Source: a virus (Duplodnaviria; Caudoviricetes). Taken from it: 28,785 bases of DNA. This document shows positions 18 through 27,682 of the stretch, one piece after another (the first letter of the stretch is position 1; every line of letters begins with the position of its first letter). The position numbers were made by a program, and so were the translations under genes. The notes below the pieces were generated by a model. It searched no databases, had not been told where the DNA came from, and saw only the letters and a list, made by a program, of their open reading frames with translations. The stretch spans positions 1 through 28,785 of IMG/VR virus record IMGVR_UViG_3300038492_000211; one strand, written 5' to 3'.

Positions 18-1606
18 CGTGCATGAATATTCACTCCCGTTTCGCAAAAACGGTAAAGATTATCATGCACTTGATAATGGCGATTAATCAGATCTCCGTT
101 GTATCCATAGTGAGTGTCATTGTAAGAATCATCCTGCATCAGAATATCAGTGCCACGCTTGCACTCAAGCAATGTGTTTCCTTGCATGAGAACACGCCCT
201 GGCCTGAGCATCCCAACCTGATCTGCGTCTGCGGTTGCAGAATCAAGTAACGCTCCTTCAATACCAATCCCATTGCTCCAACCATGTGCAAATGAATTCG
301 TCACCGAAATACCATTTGCACCATAAAGTCCGGTCCAAATGCCTTGCCCGTTGGTTTTACCTGAAAAGCGCACACTATCCGCAGATAGGTCTGCTGAATT
401 CCAAAAATCCGGATCGCCAATAGCTACAATTCGATCAAGTCGGAAATGGTATGCAGATTCTGATTGATCAAGCTCTGTTGTCCCTGGATTTCCTCGAACG
501 TTAATACCATTAATCGTACCTGCAAGTGTATGCACGGTATCGACAATCACGCGCTCCATTGACAAATCTTGGCATCCAATAATTTCAAAACCAACTGAAC
601 CCGCATGATCTATTTCAATGTCGCGTAACGTTACTCGTTCAACATTGTTGATATAGAAATTCCCATTGACAAAATTGGGACCACCAGGATAGTCTGTTCC
701 GTTCCAAAGATCACCATTAAATAGCACGCTGAATCCCTCGAGGTGCAATCCCTTTTCGCGATCAGTGCGTGACGCTGTCTGTGATGCTGCGTTGTTCAGG
801 ATGTTGTATTGGAAAAATGCATAGCCCGTCGAATCATTGATATGGCCATCTGGCACCTGGAATACCGTAATCCCGACACCATCACCAATCAGCTTGAAGT
901 TCTGAAACGTACTGTCCTCTGACACTTGGATCATTGAGTAGTCCGTCGACCGGCTTTTGGTAGTGCTATGAACACCAGCCGGTGCATATACAACCACGCT
1001 CGAACTATCCTTGAGCGTAAAGCTATCGATGATTCCACGAATACCCTTTGAGATTTCGGTGGCGTTGAACCAGAACGGCGATGCCTTAACTCTCGAACTC
1101 TCATGCCAGATAACCGCACCACCTGATTGAATATCGAAAATCTGCTGGTATGGTGATGCCTCAAGCGATGCACCGGCCTCGATGAACAGCGTATCCGTTA
1201 AGGTCAATTTGCCACCAGGACCAAATCGCAACCCCACGTAAGCCTTGAGTGTATCGTCAGAGCTCAGTGTGACATTTGACGTGATGTCCACCAGTGCCGT
1301 GTCCGTTTCAGCACTGTCAAGTGCTGCAGCAATGCCACCGCTAATATCCTGGACATTGTAACCGTATTGCCTCACGATCTGCCCAAACGTGCGCCCTGAG
1401 ACATTGAATACCTGATTTGCCAATGTACTCGGAAGCGTGAAAGTCCGGTTTGATCCAAGCGTGTTTCCCGACGCACTCAGTGTAAATGAAATCGTATCAC
1501 CGGCCGCACTGATAAAATAGACCGGGTTCCGCTTGATATGGTACTTAATGTCCTGCGCGCCGAGACTGGTCACCAGGAACAGAAAGACTACAAATATTCG
1601 GCGCAT
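2..1606 (-). CDS. Tailspike / pectin-lyase-like parallel beta-helix protein with N-terminal signal peptide; runs off the window, absent from the ORF track
   Basis: Manual translation: ATG at 1606 with GAGGTG RBS, open to the window edge. Begins MRRIFVVFLFLVTSLGAQD; contains GGKLTL..EASPYQQIF, SPFWFN, VYAPAGVH, LIGDGVGITVF and repeated N/I/G-rich rungs (NVERVTLRDIEIDHAGSVGFEIIGCQDLSMERV). Lies at the end of the tail module. Confidence 0.8.
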   Translation of the reverse strand, partial: MRRIFVVFLFLVTSLGAQDIKYHIKRNPVYFISAAGDTISFTLSASGNTLGSNRTFTLPSTLANQVFNVSGRTFGQIVRQYGYNVQDISGGIAAALDSAETDTALVDITSNVTLSSDDTLKAYVGLRFGPGGKLTLTDTLFIEAGASLEASPYQQIFDIQSGGAVIWHESSRVKASPFWFNATEISKGIRGIIDSFTLKDSSSVVVYAPAGVHSTTKSRSTDYSMIQVSEDSTFQNFKLIGDGVGITVFQVPDGHINDSTGYAFFQYNILNNAASQTASRTDREKGLHLEGFSVLFNGDLWNGTDYPGGPNFVNGNFYINNVERVTLRDIEIDHAGSVGFEIIGCQDLSMERVIVDTVHTLAGTINGINVRGNPGTTELDQSESAYHFRLDRIVAIGDPDFWNSADLSADSVRFSGKTNGQGIWTGLYGANGISVTNSFAHGWSNGIGIEGALLDSATADADQVGMLRPGRVLMQGNTLLECKRGTDILMQDDSYNDTHYGYNGDLINRHYQVHDNLYRFCETGVNIHARIVTGK

Positions 1607-3141
1607 GGCAATTCCACCTCGTACATGGGTTCACCTGGTCTGAGTTCTGGCGCATAGTTTGGATTGGTCAACCACAACTCGCGATAAATATTCCTTCCAC
1701 GCCCTCTACCTTTTCCGGAAGCGTAATACGTGGACACATTGGCAGCCGTCATTGCGTATTTTTTCAAGTCCAGATCATCGATCAAAAACGATCCACCTGC
1801 AGAACTCCGGCCGAGCAAAATCTGGGTGGGCTCACAAACACCCTGAAATCCTGGCGTCGATGTTGCCTGTTTTAGAACTCCGTCGACATAAAGACTCATC
1901 ACTGCGGCCGCGTCTTGATCCCAAACAATCGCAATATGTGTCCAGGTGTCCGGATCCAGAAAGTCACCAGTAGGCGCAACCTGAGCACCGTTGCCACTAT
2001 CGTCATAGTACCGCATACTCACCTCGAAGTTGCCGGCAGCGTTCTTGACAACCCTGAGAAAGTCTTTTCCTGTCGATGTTTCAATCTGCATAATCCAGCG
2101 TTCAGCGCCATCGTTGTGATGGAACCGTGGCTTGATCCAAAAACAGACTGCACCTTTGCGTTCGTTGATGTCGTCCTTGTCGATCGGCAGTGTTACCGTT
2201 TCGACAGACCGTGACTGTGCGGACCCAGTCGTGAAGATGTCTGACGAGGCCACCGTGCGATCAAGTTCGAACTGTGGATTTTGAATCAGCACATCCTGGT
2301 TAAGTGTTGCATTGAGGAACTGATAGTACAACCAGACATTTCCACCAGCAAACAAGCTGTTTAGTGTATGGTATTGATATCGCCGCCATTCTGTGCTTAC
2401 CGCAAAGTATTCATCCTGACGCGTATTGCCAGACGCCGAGGACCGAATAAACGCCTGCAATGTTACAGGCTTAGTCAATGCCTTCGCCCAGAAGGACGCC
2501 ACCCATGTGGATGATGCAGTTGCAGAAATAGACGATGTATGCCAAATACCTCCAACTCCCGTAATGGTATTAGAGCTCAAATGCCATGCGGCATTGTTGC
2601 CTCGAATGTCTGGACAGAATGTTGCGCCATCAGCCGTCAATTCACTGTTGAATGTGGCAAACGCCGAGAATGAACCGTTGTTGATAATCTCATTCGTGGA
2701 CGCACTTTCAACCAATAACCCACCACCAAACTTGCCAGCCTCAAACCGTGGTTGGTTTACAGCAGCTTCCTTCACCAGACCATCAAACTGATCAATGTAG
2801 TTTCCAACCGATGCTCGAGATACAGATCCGTCGACATGATCATTGGACAACAGCGTTTGATTTTCGAATGACCAGTATGGCCCTTGCGTCTCATGAACCA
2901 TCAGTGCAAACGTCTGCCCTGACCTTGCATGGCGATAGAACCCGGCCAATTCATGATTGACCACCTGCCCCCTTTCATATCGAAAGCGTAGGTTGATTGT
3001 TGCCCTGTCTGGACCGTTAAGAAACTCAACTTTCCCCGATCGCGCAACGTTCTGTGAGCGTGCTCTTGTTTCTGGACGACCCATTGCGGACGGATCAACA
3101 GAAGTCCTAACCGTCCGGCCGGCATATCTAATCAGCGCCAT
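1588..3141 (-). CDS. Distal-tail (Dit)-like tail protein with inserted carbohydrate-binding and LamG/concanavalin-like domains
   Basis: GLLVESASTNEI motif, CBM-like ASFWAK..VSTEWRRY, LamG-like GAVCFWIKP..WTHIAIVWD..LYVDG..IDDL; short N- and C-terminal segments resemble a split Dit fold. Confidence 0.7.
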   Translation of the reverse strand: MALIRYAGRTVRTSVDPSAMGRPETRARSQNVARSGKVEFLNGPDRATINLRFRYERGQVVNHELAGFYRHARSGQTFALMVHETQGPYWSFENQTLLSNDHVDGSVSRASVGNYIDQFDGLVKEAAVNQPRFEAGKFGGGLLVESASTNEIINNGSFSAFATFNSELTADGATFCPDIRGNNAAWHLSSNTITGVGGIWHTSSISATASSTWVASFWAKALTKPVTLQAFIRSSASGNTRQDEYFAVSTEWRRYQYHTLNSLFAGGNVWLYYQFLNATLNQDVLIQNPQFELDRTVASSDIFTTGSAQSRSVETVTLPIDKDDINERKGAVCFWIKPRFHHNDGAERWIMQIETSTGKDFLRVVKNAAGNFEVSMRYYDDSGNGAQVAPTGDFLDPDTWTHIAIVWDQDAAAVMSLYVDGVLKQATSTPGFQGVCEPTQILLGRSSAGGSFLIDDLDLKKYAMTAANVSTYYASGKGRGRGRNIYRELWLTNPNYAPELRPGEPMYEVELPCAEYL

Positions 3142-5612
3142 TAAAAGAATCCTGTTGTCGATTTCAGGGATAGATTAATACCAGTTCGATACAACCCCAG
3201 ACCACGGAACTGCAGCGTTGGCCGGTCTGCTAACGTCGCGTCTGTTTCATACCAATCCACCTTGGCATATGAACCATTCTGCAAAGTCTGCGCATGCACG
3301 ATGAATTCCCAATCCTCTACACCCGTCAGTGCTGGATTGAACGGAATGTCCAGCAAGTGCTTTGCTTCCAACGTTGCGGCGCTGGCAATACCAACCTGCA
3401 GCCGCGCATACTTGTTCGCATCTGTTGCAGTCCCTGGCGGTGTCATCCGAATTGTATATTTCTGATAGTGACTTGCTGCGGCCGCCAGAGTCTGCATGTG
3501 GTAGTACGCATCGCTTGGCAACGTAGCAACCCCAAGTGTTGGCGATAATGCCAATGCACTGTCAGTGATATCCACCAGCGTTACATTATCGATCGACTCC
3601 TGATACGCCGTACCGAGCTTATGATATTCAAACGTCCTTAAACCAAATGTTGGATGCTCCAGAAAGTCAAACTCAGCAGACCACACAAAACAGCGTTTGG
3701 TTGCAATGCCACGGCCGCCTACATCGTGGTTAGGAATATCTGAATGCGACACCGCCACCGTGTCACCGGTGTAAACCAGTGCTTTTTTGTACCAAGTCTC
3801 TGCATGTAAATCCATCCCCGGATTGCTGTACAACATCAGCATGCGGCGATAGAAATACTTGACCTGGTCATTTTGCACAATGACCGATTGCAAACCTCGC
3901 AGATCGAACGACTTTTGAACTGTCTCGCCAAGCGTGTTGACTGAGGGTACCGACTGGATTTCGAACTCATTGTACCCAATATCCCGAAACGCTGTGCGCG
4001 TGGTTCTGATGTTGTTCATCAGCTCTTGATCTACCAAGCCAACACCAGGCTTGCCAATGATCGTATCATCTGACAACGTAATTGCTGTCAATGGACCTGC
4101 CGGCAAATCCAGAATATCCGGAATGTGGAGATTGATTAGGCCCAATTCGTCAATGTATGGGAAACACGGTGCCATCGCCTGCAATACCGTGCGGTGAAAA
4201 AACTCTGGCGTCGCCTCGGTTTGTGATAACACTTGACGAAAAGCCAGACTCCAAGTACCGTTGCGAATGCCATAGTATTTACCACATTTCTGCAGGATTT
4301 CACGAACATTCACCTGATCCTCTGGGATGCCCAAACCATAACCCGCGATGCCCAGATCATAAATACCGTTGTTGCCATCGTCAGTTGTCACCAGATACCG
4401 CACAAACAGCTCACCAGGATTGCGTTGGTGCATGATATAACCCTGATGCACATCGGTGCCGGCATCAATGATTGTACCACCGCTGTATGCCCTCATGCCT
4501 GTTAGCCGAAGCGTTGGTCGGTCTGCAAGCGTTGCACTGGTTTCCGTCCAGTCTGCTTTCAGGAAATCCGGGTACTGTGGATCACCCGGCAGAATCTTAA
4601 CTGAAAAATTCAACGTTGCCGTGTCGCTTGGCGTGTATGACAGATTACCCTCTGCTTGCGATTGAATAGATCCACCAGACAGCGCTGAGCAGACGACTTT
4701 CACCGTTCTGCTGGACGTGGTTGCACTGCCCGGTGGAACCAGCTCTATACCCATGACAAAGTTATCATGGCTCGCCCACTTCTGGGTGAACGTCGTACCA
4801 CGCTGAATGTAAGCGTCGGCCGCTTCGAATGTTGTTGATAACGTCGACGAAAGCGCCAAGGCACTGTCATTGACACCCGCCAGCGTCACCGCATACAATG
4901 GATTCGACGGTGGGATAGTTCCATTGTACAAGGGCGACTGCACCACATCGTCGCCGAACTCGCCCTGATCAAGCGTAATACCCTCGTAACCGATATAGTT
5001 ACTGCCGCCATGTATCAGCACCGGTTGATAACCCTGTGGCTCATAATCGAACGAGGACGACCCGCCATTGCCGTTGAAGCTGGAGCCATCTTCAAGCGCC
5101 AGTGTAATTTCACCTCGAATAAACGTTCTGGCCAAGCTGGTTTCAGGAATCACACGGAACACATCGCCATAGATCTTGTACAGTCCACCTTGGCATGCAA
5201 AGGACATCACCATGAGGTCACTGTCCATCGCGCGCTCTTTGATGAAAAAGTCCGGTAACCTGGTGAACTCAGCGAAGTTCAACTCCTCGTATCCGTACCA
5301 GACTTTGACCTTGCGCCCGTCCATGAAGTAGTTTCTCACCACATCCTGCACAACGCCAGCAGAGTCCAGAACCAGAGAAAAAGACATATCGCCGATTGTA
5401 TTACGCGTTTCAAGTGGATCTGCGTCAGCAAACATTCCTGAGCCGTCATCTTCCAGTAGCTGGAAAAACGTGGCATCAATGTCTGCAAAAGAGCCACTTG
5501 CAAAATAAACGTCCTGTGCGTTGTACTGCGTGCCATCAATCTGCACGATGTACACCGGCGTCTTCCGCTCTAACTCGTTGTAGGTGTTGAATGTTTGGGA
5601 TGAGGTAAACAT
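3141..5612 (-). CDS. Baseplate hub / tail-tip protein with an internally duplicated domain
   Basis: 823 aa directly after the tape measure gene; GRKVKVWYGY, PYIDELGLINL and LVYTGDTVAVSH segments typical of hub proteins. Confidence 0.7.
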   Translation of the reverse strand: MFTSSQTFNTYNELERKTPVYIVQIDGTQYNAQDVYFASGSFADIDATFFQLLEDDGSGMFADADPLETRNTIGDMSFSLVLDSAGVVQDVVRNYFMDGRKVKVWYGYEELNFAEFTRLPDFFIKERAMDSDLMVMSFACQGGLYKIYGDVFRVIPETSLARTFIRGEITLALEDGSSFNGNGGSSSFDYEPQGYQPVLIHGGSNYIGYEGITLDQGEFGDDVVQSPLYNGTIPPSNPLYAVTLAGVNDSALALSSTLSTTFEAADAYIQRGTTFTQKWASHDNFVMGIELVPPGSATTSSRTVKVVCSALSGGSIQSQAEGNLSYTPSDTATLNFSVKILPGDPQYPDFLKADWTETSATLADRPTLRLTGMRAYSGGTIIDAGTDVHQGYIMHQRNPGELFVRYLVTTDDGNNGIYDLGIAGYGLGIPEDQVNVREILQKCGKYYGIRNGTWSLAFRQVLSQTEATPEFFHRTVLQAMAPCFPYIDELGLINLHIPDILDLPAGPLTAITLSDDTIIGKPGVGLVDQELMNNIRTTRTAFRDIGYNEFEIQSVPSVNTLGETVQKSFDLRGLQSVIVQNDQVKYFYRRMLMLYSNPGMDLHAETWYKKALVYTGDTVAVSHSDIPNHDVGGRGIATKRCFVWSAEFDFLEHPTFGLRTFEYHKLGTAYQESIDNVTLVDITDSALALSPTLGVATLPSDAYYHMQTLAAAASHYQKYTIRMTPPGTATDANKYARLQVGIASAATLEAKHLLDIPFNPALTGVEDWEFIVHAQTLQNGSYAKVDWYETDATLADRPTLQFRGLGLYRTGINLSLKSTTGFF

Positions 5613-7346
5613 CTACTTAGAGCCCTGTTTCTGGACCCGTGTTGCTGGTATGCTGGTTTGCCACCTGGTAACCTGGCGTTCTAACATCGGTGACAACCGG
5701 CGTCTTACAAACTGCCCATCTACCAGACCGCCCTTAATGACATTGGTGATCTGCACACCACCGCCAACGGCCGCTGTACCGTTGTTGATCGAGTTAAGGA
5801 ACTCCTCACCGAACCGCCGCATTGCCTGGCGCGTTACCACACCCTCACCAATCTGCGCAGCGATCAGTGTATTGTCTCGACCAAAGTTCCCGCGCGCGCC
5901 GCGTGTGATCATACCACCGGTGGGATATCCTTTGATCTTGCCGCCATCAGCCAATGCCTCGACCGGACCACCATCAGCAAACGGCAGAAACTTTTTCACC
6001 GCCAAATTAATGGCCAACGTGAGCAATGTAGTAGCAACGCTTTTAATAATTTCGCCGACATCTTCAAGTTGGAAAATGATCGCATTCAATGCTCGACCGA
6101 CTTCAGACTGCAAAGCAGCTCCCAATTGCTCAGTCGCCCTAATGTTATCCTCGATCGTCACGCGCATATCGGCGGATGATTCAACTTCCTTCATGATGCC
6201 AGCCATGCGCATTGCTTGCTCAGTGCTCGCGCCCAGGTGCCGTTCGAAGAACTTGGCATGGTCCAGCATACGCTCAAGGTCTGTTCGTGTGTCAACAAAC
6301 GCCTCGCGCATACCGATGCCATCGGCGGCCATTCTGATTGCCGCCTGTTCCATGCCTCTGTATGCTTTGGTGGGTGTTTCAAGGTTTTTGCCGAGGTCCT
6401 GAACTGCCTTGTTGATCTTAGGCATTGTTTTCTCGGCAGTATCCTTAATACTTTTGCCTGCCTTGTCGGCCTCAGTAAGAACGTGGAATTCAGCTCTTAA
6501 TTGTCTTGACAACATTTGTCCGAATGAAGTCTCACCAAAAGAGCGAATACCGTCTGTGATTTTACCGATAAATTTGGCGGTACCCTGCAAAATGGGCATT
6601 AACGGCACCAATGTTTCACGGCCAAGTCCCTTGAATTGATCGATCAAATTACCTAAAGCGTCAACAGCCTTTTCTGACTTATCAGCCATATCAGAGGTAA
6701 TTACTGCACCGTACCGCTTTGAATCATCGATCAATTCTTTAATGCCCGACCTCTGCTTGCTGAGAATCTGCAGCATACTGACGCCCTCAGAATCGAATAG
6801 CTTAAACGCCAGGCGTAGCTTTTCCGAACTGCTTTTGACCTCACTGAATCGATCAGCCAATTGTGGCAACAGTTCCTCAAATGATAGAATGTTGCCCTCT
6901 GAATCCTTGACCCTTAGTCCAAGTTTCTTAATGGCTGGCGCAGCCTCACCGGATCCCATTGACGCAAATTCACCAATTCGGCGATTGGCACGCTGGACAG
7001 CCATATTGAAGTTATTGACCTGTACACCGCTGCGTCGTGCCACAAACTGCATGGCAGACAGAAATTCAACCGATTCACCAAGGCGTGTTGACAGCTTCCC
7101 AACACTATCTGCACCAGAGATGAGATCCTTGGCAAACTTTGCCGTTGCCAATGCGACCATTGCCCGCTTGAGCTTGCCAAATTGCTGCGTCAGTCCCTTT
7201 GTGGACATCTGCGCCTTTTTGGTCGACCTGGATATAGAGCTCGCTGTCTTGCTGGTCTCAGAGCGAATTTTCGCACTGACACCACGCAGTTTACCAGACG
7301 CGAGGTCGTCTACATCTACGGCAATTTCAAGTACCTTAGTCGCCAA
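5613..7346 (-). CDS. Tail tape measure protein
   Basis: 577 aa, helical and A/K/L-rich; LEIAVDVDDLASGKL start, LSTRLGESVEFLSAMQFVA and FADGG..GEGVVTRQA motifs; TTG start after the chaperone genes. Confidence 0.9.
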   Translation of the reverse strand: MATKVLEIAVDVDDLASGKLRGVSAKIRSETSKTASSISRSTKKAQMSTKGLTQQFGKLKRAMVALATAKFAKDLISGADSVGKLSTRLGESVEFLSAMQFVARRSGVQVNNFNMAVQRANRRIGEFASMGSGEAAPAIKKLGLRVKDSEGNILSFEELLPQLADRFSEVKSSSEKLRLAFKLFDSEGVSMLQILSKQRSGIKELIDDSKRYGAVITSDMADKSEKAVDALGNLIDQFKGLGRETLVPLMPILQGTAKFIGKITDGIRSFGETSFGQMLSRQLRAEFHVLTEADKAGKSIKDTAEKTMPKINKAVQDLGKNLETPTKAYRGMEQAAIRMAADGIGMREAFVDTRTDLERMLDHAKFFERHLGASTEQAMRMAGIMKEVESSADMRVTIEDNIRATEQLGAALQSEVGRALNAIIFQLEDVGEIIKSVATTLLTLAINLAVKKFLPFADGGPVEALADGGKIKGYPTGGMITRGARGNFGRDNTLIAAQIGEGVVTRQAMRRFGEEFLNSINNGTAAVGGGVQITNVIKGGLVDGQFVRRRLSPMLERQVTRWQTSIPATRVQKQGSK

Positions 7347-8078: not shown

Positions 8079-9146
8079 TTACAGTACAAGCAACCCCGTT
8101 TGAATCGTGTTGCGGAATACAAACCAGAAAGGATCTTGCCGAGACATGCCGTTTACAGCACTCTCAGTACCCAGAACCTTGAACGATAGTGGCTGCGTTA
8201 CCTTACCTGGTCCGTCAGTCACCTCGCCGTTGTCAATGATTTCCAGGTGCGGCATGTACAAATGCATACCGTAAGTCGCCAGAGCGCCAGCGGCATATCC
8301 AAAATCCAAGTACAGGTGCGCCTTTTTGCGAGTATCATTGCCCAGATCAGTCACCCAAGTATCCGCTGTCTTTGTGGGGAATTCCAGTTCGAGCATAACC
8401 TCCGGATATTCCCCGTCTGCCGGCTCTTGCATGACTGCCTCATTCCCGTCTACCTCGCCACATGCAGCGTTGTACGCTTCATTCCCACGCGCATACTTGA
8501 ACGATAAACTGGACGGCTTGACCAGGTTAGCGGCCGCCAGTGTCGCGCCGCTCTGATCACCAATCCAAAGCCTGGTGCGATCGAACACGCACAGATTCGA
8601 CTCAGTTCTCGGTGTCACTGAATTCATCAGCGTTGTAGTCACCATTGCTTGCTGCAGCCTGGCGTTGTGGACCTGATAGACCAATTGATAGAACTGACCC
8701 GCCTCGCCATTAAGCTCAAAGCCATCAAACTTGATCGACGGATAGCCATGCACAATTGCGCCGTCCTGCTTTTCCATGACCATTGAACCAAACACACCGT
8801 CAAGACTGCCGGCTGGAATGATCGTATGATCCATCGCGCCAGTTGCATGCAAAAGTGTATTGGCGGTTCCACAAGCCAGCGCAATCATTCTCTCGCTTTC
8901 ATCTGCCCTCAAATATTGCGTGATGCTTTTGGACTCAAGAGGATAGTTGCCCTTGACCGATTGCTCCAAGTGCCTTCTTCTCGCACCAAGCGAATCGTCT
9001 GGCAAAGACTCACGCGCCGGCACTCCAAGATCCTCTGCCAGAATATGAATCCCATCGTTTGCACCGAACCCGCCCACCGGCGCTGTATTCCACGTGGTGT
9101 TCCTAGTTAAACCAACCAGATAGTCTCTTTGAATGACGTTTGGCAT
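8079..9146 (-). CDS. Major tail tube protein
   Basis: 355 aa beta-rich protein between terminator and chaperone; GAGGT RBS; tube-like YLVGLTRNTTWNTAP, DHTIIP, FELNGEAG segments. Confidence 0.8.
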   Translation of the reverse strand: MPNVIQRDYLVGLTRNTTWNTAPVGGFGANDGIHILAEDLGVPARESLPDDSLGARRRHLEQSVKGNYPLESKSITQYLRADESERMIALACGTANTLLHATGAMDHTIIPAGSLDGVFGSMVMEKQDGAIVHGYPSIKFDGFELNGEAGQFYQLVYQVHNARLQQAMVTTTLMNSVTPRTESNLCVFDRTRLWIGDQSGATLAAANLVKPSSLSFKYARGNEAYNAACGEVDGNEAVMQEPADGEYPEVMLELEFPTKTADTWVTDLGNDTRKKAHLYLDFGYAAGALATYGMHLYMPHLEIIDNGEVTDGPGKVTQPLSFKVLGTESAVNGMSRQDPFWFVFRNTIQTGLLVL

Positions 9147-9155
9147 TTCAACCTC

Positions 9156-9848
9156 TTACAGTAGTTTTTCTCTGACCGTCACCAAGGCGCTTAGCGCTTC
9201 GGATCCTGTACCCTGATCGACCAATTCAAAGCCAGTTGCCGTGATAGCATCCGGATAGCCTACCGAATCTGTGAGCTCCTGCACCTCCACGTACGGTGCA
9301 TTTGTCAAGTTATTCGGCACTGTTGCGAATACACCATTTCCAAACGTGTATGTACCCGCTGCAACGTTCTCGATTCTCCATGTTCGGGCTACATTCGCCA
9401 CGCCGTTTTCTCCGTTCCGCTCAAACCTGTAGGTCAGCGTTGTTTCGGCAATCCCAAACGTCTCCATTGCCACCGTCTGGAAATCCAGCTCGTCCGTCAT
9501 GTCAACCGATCCGCCAAGCTTCTGGTCGGTCAGAATAGCGGCAATCATGTCGTCGACAAGGTCATTGAGCTCGCAAATCAAGTCATCTGTTTGATCAGCA
9601 CTCACAACACCAAAGACAGTTGCAGAAATAGCGCTCTGGCGTTGCTTTGCTGCAAAGAATTCCACCCTCTCGGACCCCAACTGAAACACGATCGCCGGAA
9701 ACTGATCGCCCGGCCGTTCGTCTGGATCCAGCAGATAATGATCGACATACAAACCACCATCTGTTAAGTATCCATTGGCTTTCTTAATGGATCCAAACAT
9801 GCTGGCGATGTTGTCATGAATGACTTGCCGTGCTCGTACATTGGCCAT
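9156..9848 (-). CDS. Tail terminator / tail completion protein with C-terminal extension
   Basis: SIKKANGYLTDGG, FPAIVF and ILTDQKLGGSV motifs; about 85 extra C-terminal residues. Confidence 0.75.
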   Translation of the reverse strand: MANVRARQVIHDNIASMFGSIKKANGYLTDGGLYVDHYLLDPDERPGDQFPAIVFQLGSERVEFFAAKQRQSAISATVFGVVSADQTDDLICELNDLVDDMIAAILTDQKLGGSVDMTDELDFQTVAMETFGIAETTLTYRFERNGENGVANVARTWRIENVAAGTYTFGNGVFATVPNNLTNAPYVEVQELTDSVGYPDAITATGFELVDQGTGSEALSALVTVREKLL

Positions 9849-10285
9849 TAGTTCGCCGCGTCTGCATCCCTGGTAAACTTAGCTTGCCAGGCAAGTATGC
9901 CAGTATTGGCCCTCAGATCATAGACAAAACCAGAAATTAACACACCCTGTACCTGATACGACTGTCCTGGCGTGAGGATTACCGGACCGCCCGCTCGCGT
10001 TGTGTCTGCGTCCTTAAACCACACGTCCAGCGTGTCAGAACTGATATTTTGCACCGCCAGATCGTAAGCGCCGCCGCCATCCAGCGTAACGGAATCCATC
10101 GTTGTGCTTGTCGCCGTGGTGTCCTGCCGCCAATCGTAGGCATTCCAGATCTGATTGAGAACTTTCTTTTCGTTCCGGTTCCAATCGCGGCGCTCCTCGA
10201 ACGTAAATCCATATGCGGCATGGAATACCGCCAGAAGTCCAATCGCAACCAGCAGTGTACGTACCTGCTCAGTGTACTTTTTCAT
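9848..10285 (-). CDS. Signal-peptide-bearing beta-rich protein within the head-tail module
   Basis: MKKYTEQVRTLLVAIGLLAVFHAAYG-F signal; VQNISSDTLDVWF..VILTPGQSY beta-sandwich-like motif; overlaps both neighbours. Confidence 0.7.
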   Translation of the reverse strand: MKKYTEQVRTLLVAIGLLAVFHAAYGFTFEERRDWNRNEKKVLNQIWNAYDWRQDTTATSTTMDSVTLDGGGAYDLAVQNISSDTLDVWFKDADTTRAGGPVILTPGQSYQVQGVLISGFVYDLRANTGILAWQAKFTRDADAAN

Positions 10286-10758
10286 TTCTTTCGCTCCTTA
10301 TATCCAATGTGCTTTTGCATCGATTTGACAATCATCTTAGCCATGCGTTCGCGCATGATCGCCTCGGAATTAACTACACCTTTCGAGAACGGTGCACGCG
10401 GTTCGCTCAAGGCACCGATCGTATCGAATTCGTGAGTACGTGCATAGATCACGTTGGTACCGAGCGTTCCGACTACCTTGCGACCCTTACGAAACACCCG
10501 TGGAAAGTTGGCCATCCAATCCGCTCTGAGTCGTCCCGTAAGCGTTCTCAGCTTATCATCGAAAGGATTTGGTATCCAAGGACCCTTGTTGCCTGCTCTG
10601 CCTCGCCCTGGCGCGCTCAGGTGGTGTTTGGCCGTGAATGACTGTGCTTCTATCAATGCCGCCTCAAGCGCCTGCATTAAGGCACCTTGCATGTCAAACG
10701 ATTTATTCCGCTTGGCAAACTTTTTCAGCTCTTTGAGATTCACTTTTGTCGCAAACAT
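10282..10758 (-). CDS. HK97 gp10-like / virion morphogenesis protein
   Basis: LRTLTGRLRA and VGTLGTNVIYARTHEF motifs; position after the connector. Confidence 0.8.
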   Translation of the reverse strand: MFATKVNLKELKKFAKRNKSFDMQGALMQALEAALIEAQSFTAKHHLSAPGRGRAGNKGPWIPNPFDDKLRTLTGRLRADWMANFPRVFRKGRKVVGTLGTNVIYARTHEFDTIGALSEPRAPFSKGVVNSEAIMRERMAKMIVKSMQKHIGYKERKK

Positions 10759-11711
10759 CAGATATTCACCATTCGGTATCTGGCAAGCGCCGCCTTAACC
10801 TCTGGCAGCAAGTCCGTCACATTGTACGAACTGGAAGCTGCACCAAGTGCGCGGTTTGTTTTGGCCAGCTTTCCAGCAGCGCCCTTTTTGCGAGACTTCT
10901 GGAATGTCTCTGCGATCTGCAAGCCTAATGCCTGTCTCAGATCTGCCGGCACCGGAAATACTTTGTTTTCACTTTCCAGGGATGCGAGGCCGGACGCATT
11001 GGTATCACCATTCCAGCCAATTAACTTTGCTGCCGACCTCGCCGCGTTCGTACCAGAACTCCATTGCAGATTGAGCGTTACCCCACTATCAACGGAGATG
11101 GTGAAGCGTCCCTGTCCGTAATTGTACGCTACCTGCAATGTCTGGCCAGTTCCGAGCGTCGTTGTGTTCATGGCCGTCTCGAGGTGACTCACAAAACTCT
11201 GCACCGAATCGTACCAGCCGGCCGATAGCTCAGCCGAGTATAGCGTCGACACTGAACCAACCTTGAAGTCAATCCGATCGTTCTCACCACTGAACACCCG
11301 GAAGGGCTCATAGCCGCCTCGATATCGCACTCGAACGTTTTGCCTGCCTCGATAGAACACGCTTTCATCGTTGAATAACTCGATCTTGCCGAGTTCTTCC
11401 GAAACAATAACGTTGGTAGTTACCACGATCGCCGTATCAGCATCCCAATTTCTGTCAACGTCATCGTACAGGCTCTGCACGTTCTGAATCGGAAACTGAT
11501 TTAAGTACACCGCCGAGTTCTGGCCATCACCGTCGAAGTGCTCTATCATGTCGTCGACAATGAAGCGTCTACGGCAATATGACTCCGCCAATTGACTCAC
11601 ACTGTTGACCACGTTCTCAACAAAAGCAGCGTTCAATGTCGCCGTTTTATTGGCAAACATAAAGTCACGCGCCTCATCAGCGCTCAGCAGTGCATTGCGT
11701 TCGAGTGCCAT
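10758..11711 (-). CDS. Head-tail connector (gp6/gp15-like) with an inserted domain
   Basis: LLSADEARDF, AESYCRRRF, EHFDGDG, NVRVRYRGGY and VPADLRQA motifs. Confidence 0.85.
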   Translation of the reverse strand: MALERNALLSADEARDFMFANKTATLNAAFVENVVNSVSQLAESYCRRRFIVDDMIEHFDGDGQNSAVYLNQFPIQNVQSLYDDVDRNWDADTAIVVTTNVIVSEELGKIELFNDESVFYRGRQNVRVRYRGGYEPFRVFSGENDRIDFKVGSVSTLYSAELSAGWYDSVQSFVSHLETAMNTTTLGTGQTLQVAYNYGQGRFTISVDSGVTLNLQWSSGTNAARSAAKLIGWNGDTNASGLASLESENKVFPVPADLRQALGLQIAETFQKSRKKGAAGKLAKTNRALGAASSSYNVTDLLPEVKAALARYRMVNI

Positions 11712-11714
11712 CGT

Positions 11715-11987
11715 TTACTTTTTCTTTCCGCGTGGCTTTCTTTTCGGTGCTGCAGGTGGATTTGGATTCTTTGGCACTACCGTCTGGTCTGCCTTGGGAT
11801 TCTCTGGTGGCTTGGCACCGCCTGCCGTCTCATGAACATCTGGCATTTCGTCAAAGTTGCCAGGGAACTGCCTGAGTAGTCGGTTGCCTTCTTCCTCGTC
11901 GACGTGCTGAATCTGTTTGTCTTTGAACTTGTACTTTGGCCCATCATAGTTGATCAGCGCTGAGGTGCTTCTGAATCTAATGCGCAT
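11715..11987 (-). CDS. Small hypothetical protein with P/K-rich tail (head module)
   Basis: 90 aa, GGAGG RBS, overlaps the upstream gene end. Confidence 0.7.
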   Translation of the reverse strand: MRIRFRSTSALINYDGPKYKFKDKQIQHVDEEEGNRLLRQFPGNFDEMPDVHETAGGAKPPENPKADQTVVPKNPNPPAAPKRKPRGKKK

Positions 11988-13179
11988 TATGAATGCCTCC
12001 TTGTTGCCCGTAGGCGTATTTCTCGAGAACTGTTTTCAGGTTATAGTATGGCTGATGATTTGGCCGGTGCGCCATTGCTTTCTGTATGGCATCCAGCGCC
12101 TGCGGATATTTGGCCGCCTGTGAATACGCATCTGCCAGCTTTTCAAGCGGCAACCAGGTAAAGTTTTCAGGCACGATAAACAGAAAGGCTTTTGGCCGCT
12201 CATAGCTGAGCGCAATCCGGTAGTACAGCGCTGCCTCATCCATCAGCTTCATCACCTTGGCAGCATCACCCAACAACAACCAGTGGTCATTGCGCTGCAC
12301 GCGATCTTTCGTGCACTCAAACAGCACGTCACGCGCCGCATGCAAGTGCGCCAAATCGCCGTCATCGTCAAACATCCGGAAGTAGGCCAACGCTATGTGG
12401 ATCCGCGATTGATAGCGTTCATCACCAAACCCAGACTGGTCTATGTGCTTCTGGAACCATTCCAGCGATTCGGTCACCTCGCCCTGTTCTTCCAAAGTAC
12501 GGGCCAGATAGAACATGCTGCGCGTGTCGGTCGGATCGTCCTCAAGGCGCTTTCTCAAGCCCTCAATGTTCATCTGGCCGCGCTGCTCTTTGCGAGCTTC
12601 TACACGTTTCGGTGGCTGCCGGTGCTCCAGAATCATATCGCCGACATTCATGCGATATTGAATCGATTCCTGAATCACGTTATGAATCGGCAAGTTGAAT
12701 TTAACACCATCCTTGCCAGCATACTTCTTTTTGCCAGCCGATCGATAGACGCGCTTGAACATCACCGGCCTTTGATATTGCGTTGTCGTGCCGGTGCTTT
12801 TGTGTGGCGGATCCTGCATAACTGCATCCACTACCCGCACATGCCGGTATTGTTCTGGTAGGTTGTTGGCAACCTGGTTAGCTATTTCCACAGCGCGAGG
12901 TGTCATGTAGTCGTGACCGTCCAGCATCAGAATCCAGTCTTGTGTTGCCTTGGCGAGACATTCGTTTCTCATTTTTGAGAAATCATCTTGCCACTTGTAG
13001 CGGTAGACCTTGAACTTTTTGACCTTGTCCCGGTAGCGTTCAACGATCGTGAGCATTTCCGGATCACTTGTTTTGTCGACGCCAACAACAAGCTCGTCAG
13101 CGATATGAATGACTCTTGATAGTGTTTCACGGAACTTCTCTTGCTCGTTTTTCACGCACATGCATACAGTTAGAGACAT
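11977..13179 (-). CDS. Glycosyltransferase family 2 with C-terminal TPR repeats
   Basis: LTVCMCVKNEQ, ADELVVGVD, WQDDFSKMRN, DWILMLDGHD, IHN; TPR-like DPTDTRSMFYLARTL. Start placed at ATG 13179 (track gives 13206). Confidence 0.9.
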   Translation of the reverse strand: MSLTVCMCVKNEQEKFRETLSRVIHIADELVVGVDKTSDPEMLTIVERYRDKVKKFKVYRYKWQDDFSKMRNECLAKATQDWILMLDGHDYMTPRAVEIANQVANNLPEQYRHVRVVDAVMQDPPHKSTGTTTQYQRPVMFKRVYRSAGKKKYAGKDGVKFNLPIHNVIQESIQYRMNVGDMILEHRQPPKRVEARKEQRGQMNIEGLRKRLEDDPTDTRSMFYLARTLEEQGEVTESLEWFQKHIDQSGFGDERYQSRIHIALAYFRMFDDDGDLAHLHAARDVLFECTKDRVQRNDHWLLLGDAAKVMKLMDEAALYYRIALSYERPKAFLFIVPENFTWLPLEKLADAYSQAAKYPQALDAIQKAMAHRPNHQPYYNLKTVLEKYAYGQQGGIHNAH

Positions 13180-13674: not shown

Positions 13675-15285
13675 TTATGACGCAGAATCCAGATTGATAC
13701 CGGACGCCACGGTCTTTTCACCGGTGCCGTAAACATCGGCAAAATCGCCGCGCTGCTTGGCAACGACCTTGTGCTGATCCAGCTCAGCATCGAACACACG
13801 ATCGAGCTTGACGCCTTCACGTGAACCGATGACAAAACCCGGAAGATACACAAGCTGTGCAGTTGTCTGTGTCTGACCACTCTGATAAACCCCCGTGCTA
13901 TTCAGATCAGACTGCGAGAACTCCGAAATCACAGCCGGGATATTCCAGACACGGCCAATCTCACCAGTGAGCAGCGTAGCGAAGTTACCATACTTCTCAG
14001 TCGTGAGCAGGTTGGAATCCTTGAGCAACAGTAAATAGCCCTCTGCGCTCAGAATCCAAGCCAAGTTTTCACGCATGATATTGTATGGCTTGCCCATTTT
14101 TTCGATCACACCATGAAGTAGATCAACCGTTGGAATCGCTGAACCAAGATCCTTTTCAGCGCTTTTGGCACTGGCCAGCTTGCGCAAGCCTTTCCACATT
14201 TTGCGCACGTCCGTACTCTCGGTCACGTTCGAATCCATGTGACTTGCCGAGTCATCGCCGTTCATGATCGCGTTTTCCCAACCGTTCGCCAGTGTCTGGG
14301 CAATGTTGCGCTCGAGAAACGGCAGAATGGCAACGATCGAATCCTCGACCTCTTCATTGGAACTCACAACACGAACGCCCATTTTCTTGGCCGTCAGTGT
14401 AAAGTTCCCGGTGCCAGGAGTCGACGCGCGAAACTTGGTTCCCTCATCATTGATATTTTCGGGAATGTAGTACGCCTGTGCGTCGCTCGTAAGCACGTTC
14501 GGCTGCAAGGTCTTGGTTGGCATCGGAATGATTTCAAACAGCGCCGACACACGTCTCAAGAGACGCACCTTGTCAAATAGGCGTGAGCTGAAACCACTTG
14601 GTACCCAATCCTGACCGGAACCGTCTGTCGACGTATTGAGCGCCTTGGCAAGACCGCTTTTGATCATGAAGTCTTGCAGCTTCTCGTACGCCTTAAACTC
14701 TGTCGGTTTGCGCCCGGTGAGCTTGTGCAACATATGCACGCGATCAGCAAGCTTTTGGAACTGATAGAGTTTCAGGCTATCCGGATCGGATGGTGCAACC
14801 TCATCAAACATCTGGCCGCCACGAACGCGCCTGATTTTCACACCAGGAACAAACGCTTTCATAATGTCGTCAGGAGTCGTCCCTTGGGCAATAACTGCAC
14901 TTGGATCGATTTCCCAACCAGCGCGCCGTTTATTGGCGTCGGCATTGATATCGTCGATGCTATCGCGACTCTGCTTATTTTCCTTCAAAACATCACGCAC
15001 AGATTCTGCAAGCAGCTTGATCGATGCGGCCGTTTGCGTTGAATTCAGAACCAAGTCCTGAATTTGCTTCAAACCCGCCTCGACACTATCTGGTTCCTGC
15101 ACGTCAATCTTGACAGGCTTCTCAATTTCAACAACATGGTGCGTGCCGTCCTTGAGCGTCAGCATTTTGCCGCCGCCTGAAACGTCCACCAGTTTCGCCT
15201 CTTCCGCTTCAACGTCGAACGGAGTCTGCTGGTCGCCGTCGATCTCTACGAGGGTACCGTCCAGCAATAGCTTATAGGTTTTCAT
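13675..15285 (-). CDS. Major capsid protein, HK97 fold, with long N-terminal scaffold region
   Basis: KALNTSTDGSGQDWVPSGFSSRLFD, TLTAKKM, ENAIMNGD, LLTGEIGRVWNIPAVIS, QRGDF; GAGGT RBS. Confidence 0.95.
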   Translation of the reverse strand: MKTYKLLLDGTLVEIDGDQQTPFDVEAEEAKLVDVSGGGKMLTLKDGTHHVVEIEKPVKIDVQEPDSVEAGLKQIQDLVLNSTQTAASIKLLAESVRDVLKENKQSRDSIDDINADANKRRAGWEIDPSAVIAQGTTPDDIMKAFVPGVKIRRVRGGQMFDEVAPSDPDSLKLYQFQKLADRVHMLHKLTGRKPTEFKAYEKLQDFMIKSGLAKALNTSTDGSGQDWVPSGFSSRLFDKVRLLRRVSALFEIIPMPTKTLQPNVLTSDAQAYYIPENINDEGTKFRASTPGTGNFTLTAKKMGVRVVSSNEEVEDSIVAILPFLERNIAQTLANGWENAIMNGDDSASHMDSNVTESTDVRKMWKGLRKLASAKSAEKDLGSAIPTVDLLHGVIEKMGKPYNIMRENLAWILSAEGYLLLLKDSNLLTTEKYGNFATLLTGEIGRVWNIPAVISEFSQSDLNSTGVYQSGQTQTTAQLVYLPGFVIGSREGVKLDRVFDAELDQHKVVAKQRGDFADVYGTGEKTVASGINLDSAS

Positions 15286-15298
15286 TGATTGCTTAACC

Positions 15299-16192
15299 TC
15301 AATTCAGTTTTGCAACTGCACCGGTCAACACATTGATGCTATTTCCGAGCAGTTCAACAGTTTTTTCGTAGTTGTCTGGGCTATCTTGTTCGTTCGACTT
15401 TTGTGGATCCACCTGATCCGACAGCTTATCCCCAACGATAGCCTTAGCATTTCGGAAAGTAAGCTCGATCAAACGGATATGATCATTGGTTAGTTCAACT
15501 TCAGAGCTGTCAACAGCTCCCTTGATTCGCGTCATTAGGTTGTGAGTACGGCCAACAGCCTCGGCAACATCAAACACCCGGCTTTTCTTCATTGGCCATA
15601 CATCGCGGTCAAAGTAGTCCTTGAGAAATTCGAACGACTTTGCCAGCGTGTCCACGTCCTTTCTCAAAGCCGAAGCATTCGCCGGCACCGGTACAATTGA
15701 GAACTCAAGTAGTTCATAGTCTTTAATGGTAAAACCCGTCTGGCCTTGCTGGTCTGCTTCTCTCGACCAACCACCGGGCAACACACGAAAACCAATAGAA
15801 CCGCTGTCCAGCACATCGCGAGCAACCTTGTCTGCAATCATGGCGGCAAAGCCATCGTTCTCATCGTCGAAATAGACCGTGCCAGTCACCTGGTTTTTGG
15901 TGATCTTGATCTTCTCGATTGGCAACGTTCCGATCGGCACGAAACCCCGTGCATCGTAACCATGTAACCAAAGCACCGGAATGTTGTCCTTTTTGGCATT
16001 TGCCGGCAGCTTCATGCCTTCCGGAATGATCACATCGCCATCCCGGTCGACTTCCTTACGCGTCAGAACCCAATCAAAACCACCATCGTTTCGACGCTTA
16101 GCCGCCTTTGTGGTCACGCAAAAGTGTTTCTTGCTTTCGTCAGGATCCTGTCTATCGATCCCCGGCCTTGCTGGTGTTTCGTTCAAGATCAT
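15299..16192 (-). CDS. HK97-family prohead maturation protease
   Basis: VDRDGDVI, PVLWLH, PIG, SIGF and ELLEFSIVPVPANASA motifs. Confidence 0.95.
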   Translation of the reverse strand: MILNETPARPGIDRQDPDESKKHFCVTTKAAKRRNDGGFDWVLTRKEVDRDGDVIIPEGMKLPANAKKDNIPVLWLHGYDARGFVPIGTLPIEKIKITKNQVTGTVYFDDENDGFAAMIADKVARDVLDSGSIGFRVLPGGWSREADQQGQTGFTIKDYELLEFSIVPVPANASALRKDVDTLAKSFEFLKDYFDRDVWPMKKSRVFDVAEAVGRTHNLMTRIKGAVDSSEVELTNDHIRLIELTFRNAKAIVGDKLSDQVDPQKSNEQDSPDNYEKTVELLGNSINVLTGAVAKLN

Positions 16193-16204
16193 TGTTAGTT
16201 TTCC

Positions 16205-16974
16205 TCAGAATCCGAATGTGACTGTGCATCGACAATTGATATTGTTGGCAGGAATCGAACCGCCAGCCGGGTGATCCATTGACTCACCTGTACCAACGAA
16301 CTTGTCATCAATGCCAACCGTCTCGGAAATGTTGTGCGGGTAGGGCTCACCCCTAACGTCCTCATCGAAGCTATGCAGCCACGATTTGGTTTTAACAATA
16401 CCTGACGTCTGCGCTGAAACCAATGCGCCGCGATTGCTCGAAGCGATCGTCTCAGTGCGCGCAATGAGAGGTGCACGGAACGACTCGGCCGCACGAAACA
16501 AGTGAGTGATCCGCCCTGTGAGTTTATCGATAGTCTCGCCACGCTCAAGACCCTGTTGCAATGTTCTTTGGACCTGACGCACGGTAAAGCGGTTGACGTT
16601 GCTGAACCGCTCAAGCCGATCGCCGAGGAACCGATCCACGATTGGATTCCTGGCATCGAATTCCACTGAAAGCCCATACTCTCGAGCCGTCCGCCTGAAC
16701 GCTGCGCGCAAGACTCGAATATATAGCGTTTCGCCCTTGGTCCGGAATAACTGGATCGCTGCTTGAATGTCAAACAAGATTTTATCCCAGTCGAGTTGCT
16801 GTATGGCTTTCTTTCCTGCATCGATGTCTCTAAGGTTCCGGACTATTTCGTCCCGTTGGTCTGCGAACTGTCCGCGTAGAAATCTGCGGAAGATACCGGC
16901 TTCAATTTCAGCTTGGTTTTTGAAGGCCAACCACCTGTGGTAGTCGCTGTCCTTTTCGATGAAAGTTTTTTTTT
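16205..16974 (-). CDS. Head morphogenesis protein (Mu gpF / SPP1 gp7 family); probably entered from the portal by a -1 shift
   Basis: RAPLIARTET, KSWLHS.D..VR, MDHPAG and NINCRC motifs. The frame is open through the A9 run; only a TTG at 16930 and no ATG near its 5' end. Confidence 0.85.
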
Positions 16975-18297
16975 CAGCAGTAGCGCAGCGCTCTTTTCGT
17001 CGTCGTCTTCTGCAATGACTTCCTCATCCAGGTCGTCAATCTCGGTGCCAAGTGGGATCTGACCGAATGGAACATAGATGACATCGCCGCCATCCATCTC
17101 AGTGAACTCTTGCCCGGCTTCCTCAGCATATAGCCGGCGCGCTTCATTGATCGCCAGAAACGGCATGCCTGTTGCTTCCTTGAGCGATCGCCGTAGTTCT
17201 ACCAAGTCCGGCTTGAGTGCATCTACCTGGCTAAGATCGTGCTGGATCCGCAACCCTGGACCAAACAGCGGCATGAAATGCTGATTCAATGCGTCCTCAA
17301 ACTTCCTGAGCTTGGGAATCATTGTTTTGGTCCAGAACAAACGTTCCTCAACCTCGGCCGTCGCCTTGTTGATCTGCTCACCCAGACCAACGTGCAGTTT
17401 GGGCGTCCCGGTTGTGCTCAGAATCTCGTTTGTGTTCCGCTCACGCTGCTGCATGAAATCCATGTCGCGCTGTGATGTGGTCGTTTCCTTCCACTCCAAT
17501 CCATCGGCAACCAGCGGCTTGCGAAACTTGCCCCACCCGGTGAACTCTTTGGTGAACTGTTCCTTGAGCCGTTGGAATGCTTGGTCACTCAGCGGTTCCT
17601 TTGACACCAGCATGCCCTCAGGCACCGCACCGTTTTTGAAAAAGTTCAGATTCCAGGACGCACAGTACAGATCTGTCTCAAGCGCATTACTGGCCGGCTC
17701 GATCGATCCAAGCCCTTTGTGATCGTTTTTGATGTAGATGTAGCGGAAGTACAGCACATACTCGCGCGGGATCTTGGTTTTCTTCCCGTTCAGCATGTAC
17801 TCGTAATGTGAGATGTATTCTTTTTCGTGTGGAACAATGGTCGTACGGTCTGGACGGAGGAAATAGATTTGCTCAACTGGATTGGTTGGCGATGGAGGTA
17901 GTTCTGGCCGTTGCGGTACAAGCTCCCAATACGATTCACCTACAAGTTCCATCGATTGGAAGTGCATTTCCCATAGATCGGCGCGGCTCTGCCACTTGTT
18001 TGGCGGCTTGATCGCATCGAATACCGGATGTGGCGGCAGGATCTCAAGTGACTCACCGCCTGCGGTATTTGCCATCAGCTTTGGCTTTAGCCCAGACGCA
18101 GCGTTGGCAATCTCGAATACCGTGGCATAAGCATAGGCATGCTTGCCATAGACGTCGATCAGTGCTGATTTTTCTTCGTTATCGTCTGCTGTGAGAATCT
18201 TTGCGGCACCACCGCCAGCATTCTCTGCTTGGATGGTTGCGGTTATGCGGGGAGAAAGGAGTTTTCTGTCGAGGGCTTGTCCAATGCCTGCGAACAC
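16843..18297 (-). CDS. Portal protein (HK97 family)
   Basis: HPV..IKPPN, LVGESYW, LRPDR, GLGSIE, FFKNGAVPEG, DMDF and INEAR motifs. Confidence 0.95.
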   Translation of the reverse strand: MFAGIGQALDRKLLSPRITATIQAENAGGGAAKILTADDNEEKSALIDVYGKHAYAYATVFEIANAASGLKPKLMANTAGGESLEILPPHPVFDAIKPPNKWQSRADLWEMHFQSMELVGESYWELVPQRPELPPSPTNPVEQIYFLRPDRTTIVPHEKEYISHYEYMLNGKKTKIPREYVLYFRYIYIKNDHKGLGSIEPASNALETDLYCASWNLNFFKNGAVPEGMLVSKEPLSDQAFQRLKEQFTKEFTGWGKFRKPLVADGLEWKETTTSQRDMDFMQQRERNTNEILSTTGTPKLHVGLGEQINKATAEVEERLFWTKTMIPKLRKFEDALNQHFMPLFGPGLRIQHDLSQVDALKPDLVELRRSLKEATGMPFLAINEARRLYAEEAGQEFTEMDGGDVIYVPFGQIPLGTEIDDLDEEVIAEDDDEKSAALLLKKKLSSKRTATTTGGWPSKTKLKLKPVSSADFYADSSQTNGTK

Positions 18298-18348
18298 GTG
18301 CGATCTCGCGATCTCTGCAAGACTTCCTGCTCGAGTTCTTCAATCGCG

Positions 18349-18380
18349 CAAATATACAGTCAGTCGCAAGCGTTTGACAA
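18349..18380 (-). promoter_or_regulatory. Putative promoter of the virion operon
   Basis: Minus strand TTGTCA-N18-TATATTTG in the intergenic gap upstream of the portal. Confidence 0.5.
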
Positions 18381-18434
18381 GGAAATAATATTTTGCCTAC
18401 TTAGGTCTTCGGACTGTGGGCAATAGAACCCGTT

Positions 18435-27667: not shown

Positions 27668-27682
27668 GCTATCCACCTTTCA

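Follow-up and report, generated by a model that had tools for sequence, protein, structure and literature searches.

Tailed phages are taught to assemble entirely within the cytoplasm, where known beta-helix tailspikes also fold and attach. The viral DNA analyzed here (hereafter the window; all 28,785 bases of IMG/VR virus record IMGVR_UViG_3300038492_000211, Duplodnaviria; Caudoviricetes) raises the question of whether a tailspike may instead travel through the host secretion pathway. The late module fills the left 18 kb of the window on the minus strand, and its tail-module gene following the distal tail genes encodes a tailspike-like protein (hereafter the spike) with a predicted Sec-type leader and many D-S/T O-glycosylation motifs. 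An initial annotation had proposed that this protein is exported, glycosylated in the periplasm, and either attached to virions at lysis or used from the cell envelope. We put at roughly one half the probability that a beta-helix receptor-binding spike is exported, glycosylated and added to particles at lysis. The leader, the start codon and the sequon excess withstood testing, a virion role is supported by gene position and by a precedent in Cellulophaga phage phi18:3, and glycosylation is read from motifs only.

Leader, start codon and predicted fold of the spike

The leader (MRRIFVVFLFLVTSLGA-QD, 1606-1556 on the minus strand) contains two Arg and a 14-residue uncharged stretch, ending in L-G-A followed by Gln, with a best 10-aa Kyte-Doolittle value of 3.24. 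It was judged with a hand-made heuristic looking for a basic n-region, a hydrophobic h-region, small residues at -1 and -3 and the absence of a lipobox Cys. All these hallmarks of a Sec/signal peptidase I (SPI) leader were found, with Q18 as the +1 residue at the predicted cleavage site, in agreement with the cleavable Sec leader and Gln at +1 described in the initial annotation. Cys residues in the window part of the spike are restricted to positions 345, 482 and 521, none near the leader, and a lipoprotein reading was rejected for want of a lipobox Cys. Type IX cargo was likewise rejected: the full-length twin P0003 (see below) has no type IX secretion system (T9SS) C-terminal domain in Pfam or NCBIfam, and no xPNP motif. 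No barrel signature for reaching the surface was found in the spike. Without a type IX signal the spike would remain periplasmic until lysis. Export of the spike by the host Sec pathway is very probable.

The spike gene lies in the late operon. A moron with its own promoter was rejected, as the gene overlaps its neighbour and the LamG-spike junction shows no consensus promoter or terminator; this test covers the 5' junction, the gene's 3' end falling outside the window. No consensus promoter or terminator was found at either of the junctions examined, where genes overlap their neighbours.

The ~530-aa gene of the initial annotation is present as an open reading frame (ORF), starting at 1606 and open at the contig end, but it is cut by that end: the full protein has 826 aa and the last 8 residues of the annotated product are not genuine. 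The full length is given by P0003, a twin encoded on a 53.5-kb contig; a second variant, P0002, is 97–98% identical and starts at residue 62. Because the string at bases 1-17 is found again at the end of another contig, these bases are read as a probable primer, which we take to be a library (random-amplification) primer. Contigs from sequencing runs X1 and X2, a single study that may itself have supplied the window and thus serves for alleles only, part from the window before base 24 and then match the P0003 sequence; hence codons 1-527 are genuine.

A GAGGTG site stands 8 nt 5' of the spike ATG, with an anti-Shine-Dalgarno (anti-SD) pairing of -7.4 kcal/mol, and the spike start overlaps the LamG gene by 19 nt. 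Neither in-frame alternative, GTG at codon 12 or TTG at codon 62, has an SD-like site, and the next in-frame ATG is codon 225. The X2 allele differs from the window at 32 bases in 31 codons between codons 40 and 123, with 29 codons silent and 2 carrying replacements. Of the silent codons, 11 come before the TTG (codon 62); selection on codons 40-58 is purifying, and none of the variants listed falls within the leader itself. A start at codon 62 was rejected on account of these 11 silent changes and the lack of an SD site; for codon 12, the lack of such a site is the sole ground for exclusion. The SD site and the mostly silent allele changes together make a start downstream of the hydrophobic segment unlikely, and favour the annotated ATG.

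The same alternative codons would allow two products, with the full frame exported and a second start in or just after the leader yielding a leaderless spike that joins tails in the cytoplasm. The in-frame GTG and TTG, and the fact that P0002 starts at residue 62, are compatible with this. In this phage, with its strong reliance on SD sites, both codons nevertheless lack an SD-like site; purifying selection acts on codons 40-58; and the first residue of P0002 is Leu, not Met, as if a contig edge had cut the gene. We regard such a dual product as improbable.

Protein language-model (ESM) features group the spike with right-handed beta-helix proteins (best score 0.93), the 10 best named matches all belonging to one clan, and a beta-helix rung motif, drawn up from general knowledge after the sequence had been seen, occurs 6 times against 0.78 expected (p=0.0002). 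Residues 760-822 weakly resemble K1-lyase_C (E-value 0.42). Searches of Pfam, PHROG, NCBIfam, PDB and cultured phages returned no significant match to the spike, and a single-sequence AlphaFold model had a predicted local distance difference test (pLDDT) score of 36 and was left unused. A tailspike-like beta-helix is thus a reasonable prediction from these models. Like P22 gp9, spikes of the K1-lyase type and crAss001 gp22-26, the spike has a predicted right-handed beta-helix and ~800 aa, and it shares with known tailspikes its position after the distal tail genes and the weak K1-lyase_C-like end. It is likely the receptor-binding or capsule-cutting protein of the phage. Its predicted leader sets it apart from cytoplasmic tailspikes, which are made without an export signal; crAss001 gp22-26, unlike the spike, have neither a leader nor a significant sequon excess.

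Sequon excess, its controls and the probable host

With the sequon defined as D-S/T-(A/I/L/V/M/T), all ten motifs listed in the initial annotation were found, at residues 37, 97, 102, 118, 138, 231, 258, 356, 410 and 455. The window part of the spike thus holds 10 sequons against 2.44 expected (p=0.0002, 10,000 shuffles; ~0.007 after accounting for 37 ORFs), and the mature full-length protein holds 11 against 3.84 (p=0.0016), well above background. In P0003, seven sequons lie in residues 18-270, three in 271-530 and one in 531-826. Control motifs are at background in the spike (E-S/T-x, 1 vs 1.9; N-S/T-x, 5 vs 4.0), as are the order controls (reversed motif, 2 vs 3.8; swapped, 4 vs 3.8). The neighbouring LamG protein has no sequons against 1.6 expected, as first noted. 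The earlier caveat that hub and capsid also carry D-S/T dipeptides was given a formal test, in which it held for the capsid (6 vs 2.3, p=0.025) and lapsed for the hub, whose count is not significant (6 vs 3.6).

Three of the 37 window ORFs reach p<0.01, and all three have hydrophobic N-termini; two further short ORFs with a hydrophobic start have no sequons, and among the other 32 the capsid is the only one to reach p<0.05. Pooled, the three hydrophobic-start ORFs hold 18 sequons against 5.1 expected, and the 32 signal-less ORFs 32 against 23.6, a pooling chosen after the per-ORF result and excluding the two short ORFs without sequons. One of the three, a 143-aa ORF at 22324-22755 (-), lies outside the late module and has 3 sequons against 0.46 (p=0.007).

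Another of the three is a 145-aa gene (9848-10285), which lies directly 5' of the tail terminator and overlaps the genes on either side; its product has a hydrophobic leader, 4 sequons against 0.8 expected, and Phe rather than Gln at +1. A sister phage, L001, has the same gene order (tube 54%, capsid 49–51% identical) and an orthologue at 5803-6219 that is 40% identical and retains the leader and three of the four sequons, with Ser/Thr exchanges. Aligned Asp residues are kept at 4 of 13 positions between the two copies, and three of these four are sequon Asp (p~0.002). The 145-aa neck protein probably takes the same export route as the spike. Its leader may, judging by its sequence, be a membrane anchor instead of a cleaved signal, and the protein could possibly be an exported decoration protein or a membrane-anchored assembly factor. 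In an atlas model it resembles small beta-sandwich proteins of viruses (TM-score ~0.5), a lead only.

Across genomes, sequon enrichment in leader-bearing proteins is 3.72-fold in the window and L001 combined, 2.27-fold in Rhodothermus plasmid proteins (n=5; 23 vs 10.1) and 0.38-fold in a genome outside the Fibrobacteres-Chlorobi-Bacteroidetes (FCB) group (n=10; 3 vs 7.8); the leader caller behind these benchmarks is crude, with 2 of its 6 picks in the window and L001 false. The leaderless crAss001 spikes gp22, gp23, gp25 and gp26 together hold 16 sequons against 11.8, none significant individually, and the membrane-anchored crAss001 gp27, annotated as a lysis regulator (locus L032, 15094-15696), holds 4 against 0.3. 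In Bacteroidota O-glycosylation the same motif is used, modification is confined to non-cytoplasmic proteins, and site occupancy is nearly full, according to the accessible part of a review (PMC12871550), in which the word "phage" does not occur. On the strength of its motifs, the spike is probably O-glycosylated at D-S/T sites.

These controls bear on a more conventional account, in which the spike is an ordinary cytoplasmic tailspike, its hydrophobic N-terminus a helix that stays uncleaved and serves assembly or anchoring, and the surplus of D-S/T motifs a matter of turn geometry or of sites for a glycosyltransferase (the GT2 enzyme) encoded by the phage. Parts of tailed phages are normally cytoplasmic, crAss001 spikes have no leader, the capsids of the two phages are mildly enriched as well, and both phages keep a GT2-TPR gene among their head-neck genes. 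The enrichment is nevertheless Asp-specific and order-specific and tracks leader-bearing proteins, sequons are kept site by site in the second leader-bearing gene, and the tripartite leader with L-G-A/Gln closely resembles that of phi18:3 gp087, with L-N-A/Gln. We give this account little credence. Regarding the capsid itself, three sequon sites are shared between the window phage and L001 (630-2213).

Both the motif and the Q-rule suggest a host from the FCB group. In the accessible part of PMC5837995, the Q-rule (Gln at +1) also reaches high values in Ignavibacterium album (77%). The classic Bacteroidota host implied by the initial annotation is contradicted by the strong reliance of both the window phage and L001 on SD sites: the median anti-SD pairing at 15 late starts of the window is -6.1 against -2.2 (p=1.4e-6), and in L001 it is -6.15 against -2.4 (10 starts). 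In phi18:3 the values are -0.1 against -1.4 (23 starts), indicating no SD use. SD motifs precede 27 of 36 window starts and 136 of 602 other ATGs, a count from hand-picked starts, one of them misplaced, and the conclusion relies on the energy test. Bacteroidetes and Chlorobi are described as almost devoid of SD sites (PMC3155529, accessible part), with strong sites in 0.2–1.7% of genes depending on class (PMC7797042, accessible part). Since phage-encoded bS21 probably still blocks the anti-SD, by the available text of PMC9723584, it offers no ready exception to this argument. Strong SD use thus places the inferred host outside Bacteroidia, Flavobacteriia, Cytophagia, Sphingobacteriia and Chitinophagia. 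The sequence evidence makes an SD-using FCB member beyond these five classes the likely host. We presume that candidates include Ignavibacteria, Calditrichota, KSB1, Zixibacteria and Marinisomatota. Genomes reached via the tail tube were Desulfobacterota-type prophages at ~30% identity, and the RNase H of the window, considered as a host marker, gave weak phage matches only.

Proposed virion attachment and alternative fates of the probably exported protein

Leader-bearing structural proteins are already in GenBank, and each ingredient of the proposed route is already known. Cellulophaga phages phi18:3 and phi13:2 (Baltivirus, Pachyviridae; KC821620 and KC821633; L019 2892-8584 and L020 6865-12844) each have three tandem proteins with Q-rule leaders. 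In phi18:3 these are gp085, gp086 and gp087, annotated "structural protein; experimental MS/MS proteomics", each beginning with a Sec-type leader and then Gln. The gp086 and gp087 proteins of phi13:2 share just their first 118 and 63 residues with the phi18:3 counterparts, and their differing bodies are annotated as pectate lyase; shared N-termini with swapped bodies are the mosaic layout of receptor-binding proteins. Like the spike, phi18:3 gp085-087 and phi13:2 gp084, gp086 and gp087 are large late proteins with a Sec-type leader and Gln at +1. They differ from it in showing no sequence homology to it (blastp, phmmer) and in being sequon-poor, whereas the window phage has a 2.9-fold sequon excess in its spike, together with a tape measure and a tail tube; the phi18:3 host, moreover, belongs to the Flavobacteriia, without SD use, unlike the strongly SD-using window phage. 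The leaders of these Baltivirus proteins go undiscussed in the literature covered. Owing to the sequon poverty of the Baltivirus proteins, which may itself represent avoidance of glycosylation, the precedent covers export and not glycosylation. The phi18:3 precedent moved our estimate for virion attachment of the spike from doubtful to slightly favoured, where it stands by analogy.

The preferred sequence of events would be as follows. From its late-operon position, the spike gene would be transcribed late and, with coupled translation, yield a preprotein. Sec export and cleavage by signal peptidase I at A17-Q18 would expose Gln18, which a host cyclase would convert to pyroglutamate, and a host D-S/T-specific periplasmic transferase would place O-glycans on the N-terminal third. 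The distribution of motifs suggests that the distal helix would be left mostly bare for substrate binding. The protein would fold in the periplasm, probably as a trimer, and once lysis opens the inner membrane, progeny tails would pick it up.

The principal competitor is that the spike is exported and glycosylated and never joins the virion, acting as a free envelope depolymerase, periplasmic, on the surface or vesicle-borne, with the LamG protein and the hub binding the receptor. Its role could be late clearing of host capsule for progeny release, receptor masking or a superinfection block. An export signal normally keeps a protein apart from cytoplasmic tail assembly, a leaderless LamG spike-like gene adjoins, and no attachment domain was recognized in the spike. 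Free phage depolymerases are known: the accessible part of a lysis review (PMC6116005) covers exported endolysins and free depolymerase activity, and contains no exported spike. In Porphyromonas gingivalis prophages (Nixviridae), genes with a Sec/SPI leader and Gln at +1 have been read as use of host secretion and proposed to modify the envelope (PMC10367356). By the available text of that source these are five genes of unknown function, one encoding a 144-aa protein, that, in contrast to the spike gene, are not presented there as encoding spikes or components of virions; its main text, so far as accessible, makes no mention of glycosylation. Against a free enzyme stand the tailspike position of the gene and its fusion into the tail operon, the lack of a C-terminal type IX signal, or of a barrel signature, for reaching the surface, the mosaic leader-bearing analogues labelled structural by tandem mass spectrometry (MS/MS) in phi18:3, and a weak resemblance to the C-terminal domain of a tailspike (E-value 0.42). 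We consider it a tentative alternative, less probable than virion attachment.

Several observations weigh against an exported, glycosylated spike added at lysis. The presence of the spike on particles, its cleavage and its glycosylation are predictions, and the leaderless LamG protein is a further candidate for receptor binding in this phage. Beyond twins at 97–100% identity, no relatives of the spike were found in the protein collection (8000 candidates scored per search), viral and metagenome contigs, cultured phages or PDB sequences. Its N-terminus likewise has no homologues in the protein collection, and no virion-attachment domain was recognized, residues 75-215 giving no significant match among cultured phages and PDB sequences. 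The MS/MS label on a virion preparation can stem from co-purified secreted protein or vesicles, and the leader proteins of phi18:3 and phi13:2 hold 8 sequons against 21.2 expected (gp085-087, 1 each against 3.0–3.6). Sequon excess also appears without a leader, in the capsid (6 vs 2.3 here, 6 vs 2.5 in L001) and in an 861-aa ORF of locus L007 (14 vs 5.9, p=0.01), and Gemmatirosa leader proteins reach 1.39-fold, near their E-S/T control (1.26). In L001 the small neck protein carries an uncharged stretch of 20 residues and lacks Gln at +1. Finally, the D-S/T motif shows enrichment chiefly in Bacteroidota (PMC12871550, accessible part), in some tension with an SD-using host, and the host of the window phage, by its strong SD use, falls outside the classes whose O-glycans were characterized.

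If the proposed route is correct, a Sec-routed receptor-binding protein adds an assembly step at lysis, and spikes gain periplasmic folding and host glycans, tying host range to the secretion and glycosylation machinery of the host. No literature describing Sec-routed tail spikes was found in the sources covered, with subscription journals and bioRxiv supplements outside that coverage, and the term "signal peptide" is absent from the available text of a recent Cellulophaga proteomics paper (PMC13288928). As cultured phages with leader-bearing proteins, phi18:3 and phi13:2 make the question approachable; the window phage contributes a conserved leader-bearing gene located among the neck genes, along with evidence of the theme in SD-using hosts. 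Annotation pipelines that drop signal-peptide proteins as non-structural may overlook such spikes. In a broader and rather doubtful version, a siphophage family would complete its particle outside the cytoplasm, with the spike Sec-exported, cloaked in host O-glycans and added at lysis along with a small protein decorating the neck or tail, and with the GT2 enzyme glycosylating the cytoplasmic parts. A D-S/T glycosylation system would then be active in an SD-using FCB lineage outside the classic Bacteroidota.

Gene layout and further observations

The features of the window are collected in Table 1. Among the window ORFs scanned, none was recognized as a terminase, integrase or lysis gene, and packaging and lysis genes must sit in a portion absent from the contig; 5' of the portal (16843-18982) lie small ORFs of no known function and no terminase gene. 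No sheath gene was recognized, from which a siphophage is inferred.

Table 1. Coordinates of the spike gene, its parts and the surrounding late genes.
Feature	Position	Strand	Basis or remark
Tailspike-like gene, 5' 527 codons	26..1606	-	gene continues past window end; complete protein 826 aa (P0003)
Predicted Sec/SPI signal peptide, residues 1-17, cleavage A17-Q18, Q-rule type	1556..1606	-	sequence, hand-made heuristic
Shine-Dalgarno-like site, 8 nt 5' of ATG, within LamG gene end	1615..1620	-	-7.4 kcal/mol
Sequon-rich N-terminal part, residues 18-270; presumed stalk and cap (stalk role inferred)	797..1555	-	7 sequons vs 1.38 expected
Start of predicted right-handed beta-helix body, ~residues 180-750 of 826	26..1069	-	language-model features, rung motif
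Small C-terminal domain after beta-helix, outside window			weak K1-lyase_C likeness, E 0.42
Probable library primer, non-phage DNA	1..17	.	loose ends of other contigs; primer identity presumed
Signal-less LamG/CBM tail protein, 0 sequons	1588..3141	-	phrog_5939 tail protein; GTA_spike_fiber
Probable hub/distal tail protein, 823 aa	3141..5612	-	name from position alone; no family match
Tape measure protein	5613..7346	-	
Tail tube protein	8079..9146	-	PF18906 in its relatives
Tail terminator	9156..9848	-	
Second leader-bearing sequon-rich protein P0006, 145 aa, in neck module; small beta-sandwich-like	9848..10285	-	
Head-tail adaptor	10758..11711	-	phrog_442
GT2 + TPR glycosyltransferase within head-neck module	11977..13179	-	no export signal at homology-backed start
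HK97-type major capsid protein	13675..15285	-	
Prohead protease, Mu gpF-like protein, portal	15299..18297	-	

Alignments of the tube, the capsid, the small protein and the GT2 enzyme, used for scanning, brought up L001, which stops in the tape measure gene, as the sole true sister; single-protein scans with the capsid and the LamG protein found no sister phage. The other 17 tube loci are 28–33% identical and lack the module, 5 near-duplicate tube loci lying outside this comparison.

Mycobacteriophage virions are reportedly glycosylated by phage glycosyltransferases. Like those phages, the window phage has a glycosyltransferase gene among its structural genes, although their route is cytoplasmic and phage-catalysed, whereas that proposed for the spike is periplasmic and host-catalysed. 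The GT2-TPR enzyme is SunS-like (E-value 9e-13) and may serve cytoplasmic glycosylation of virion proteins; its L001 copy (2723-3943, 57% identical) is the best-kept gene of the module.

Spike-gene alleles in the X1 and X2 runs are 8–12% divergent (region 651-1838), another contig from these runs joins at 1838 within the LamG gene, and variant pieces of the hub gene occur at 4493-4817; these variants suggest that the tail end is mosaic within the population. Elsewhere in the window lie an MT-A70 methylase (20017-20598), a caulimovirus-domain RNase H (26936-27676, minus strand) and a GT9 heptosyltransferase-like gene (27683-28618, minus strand).

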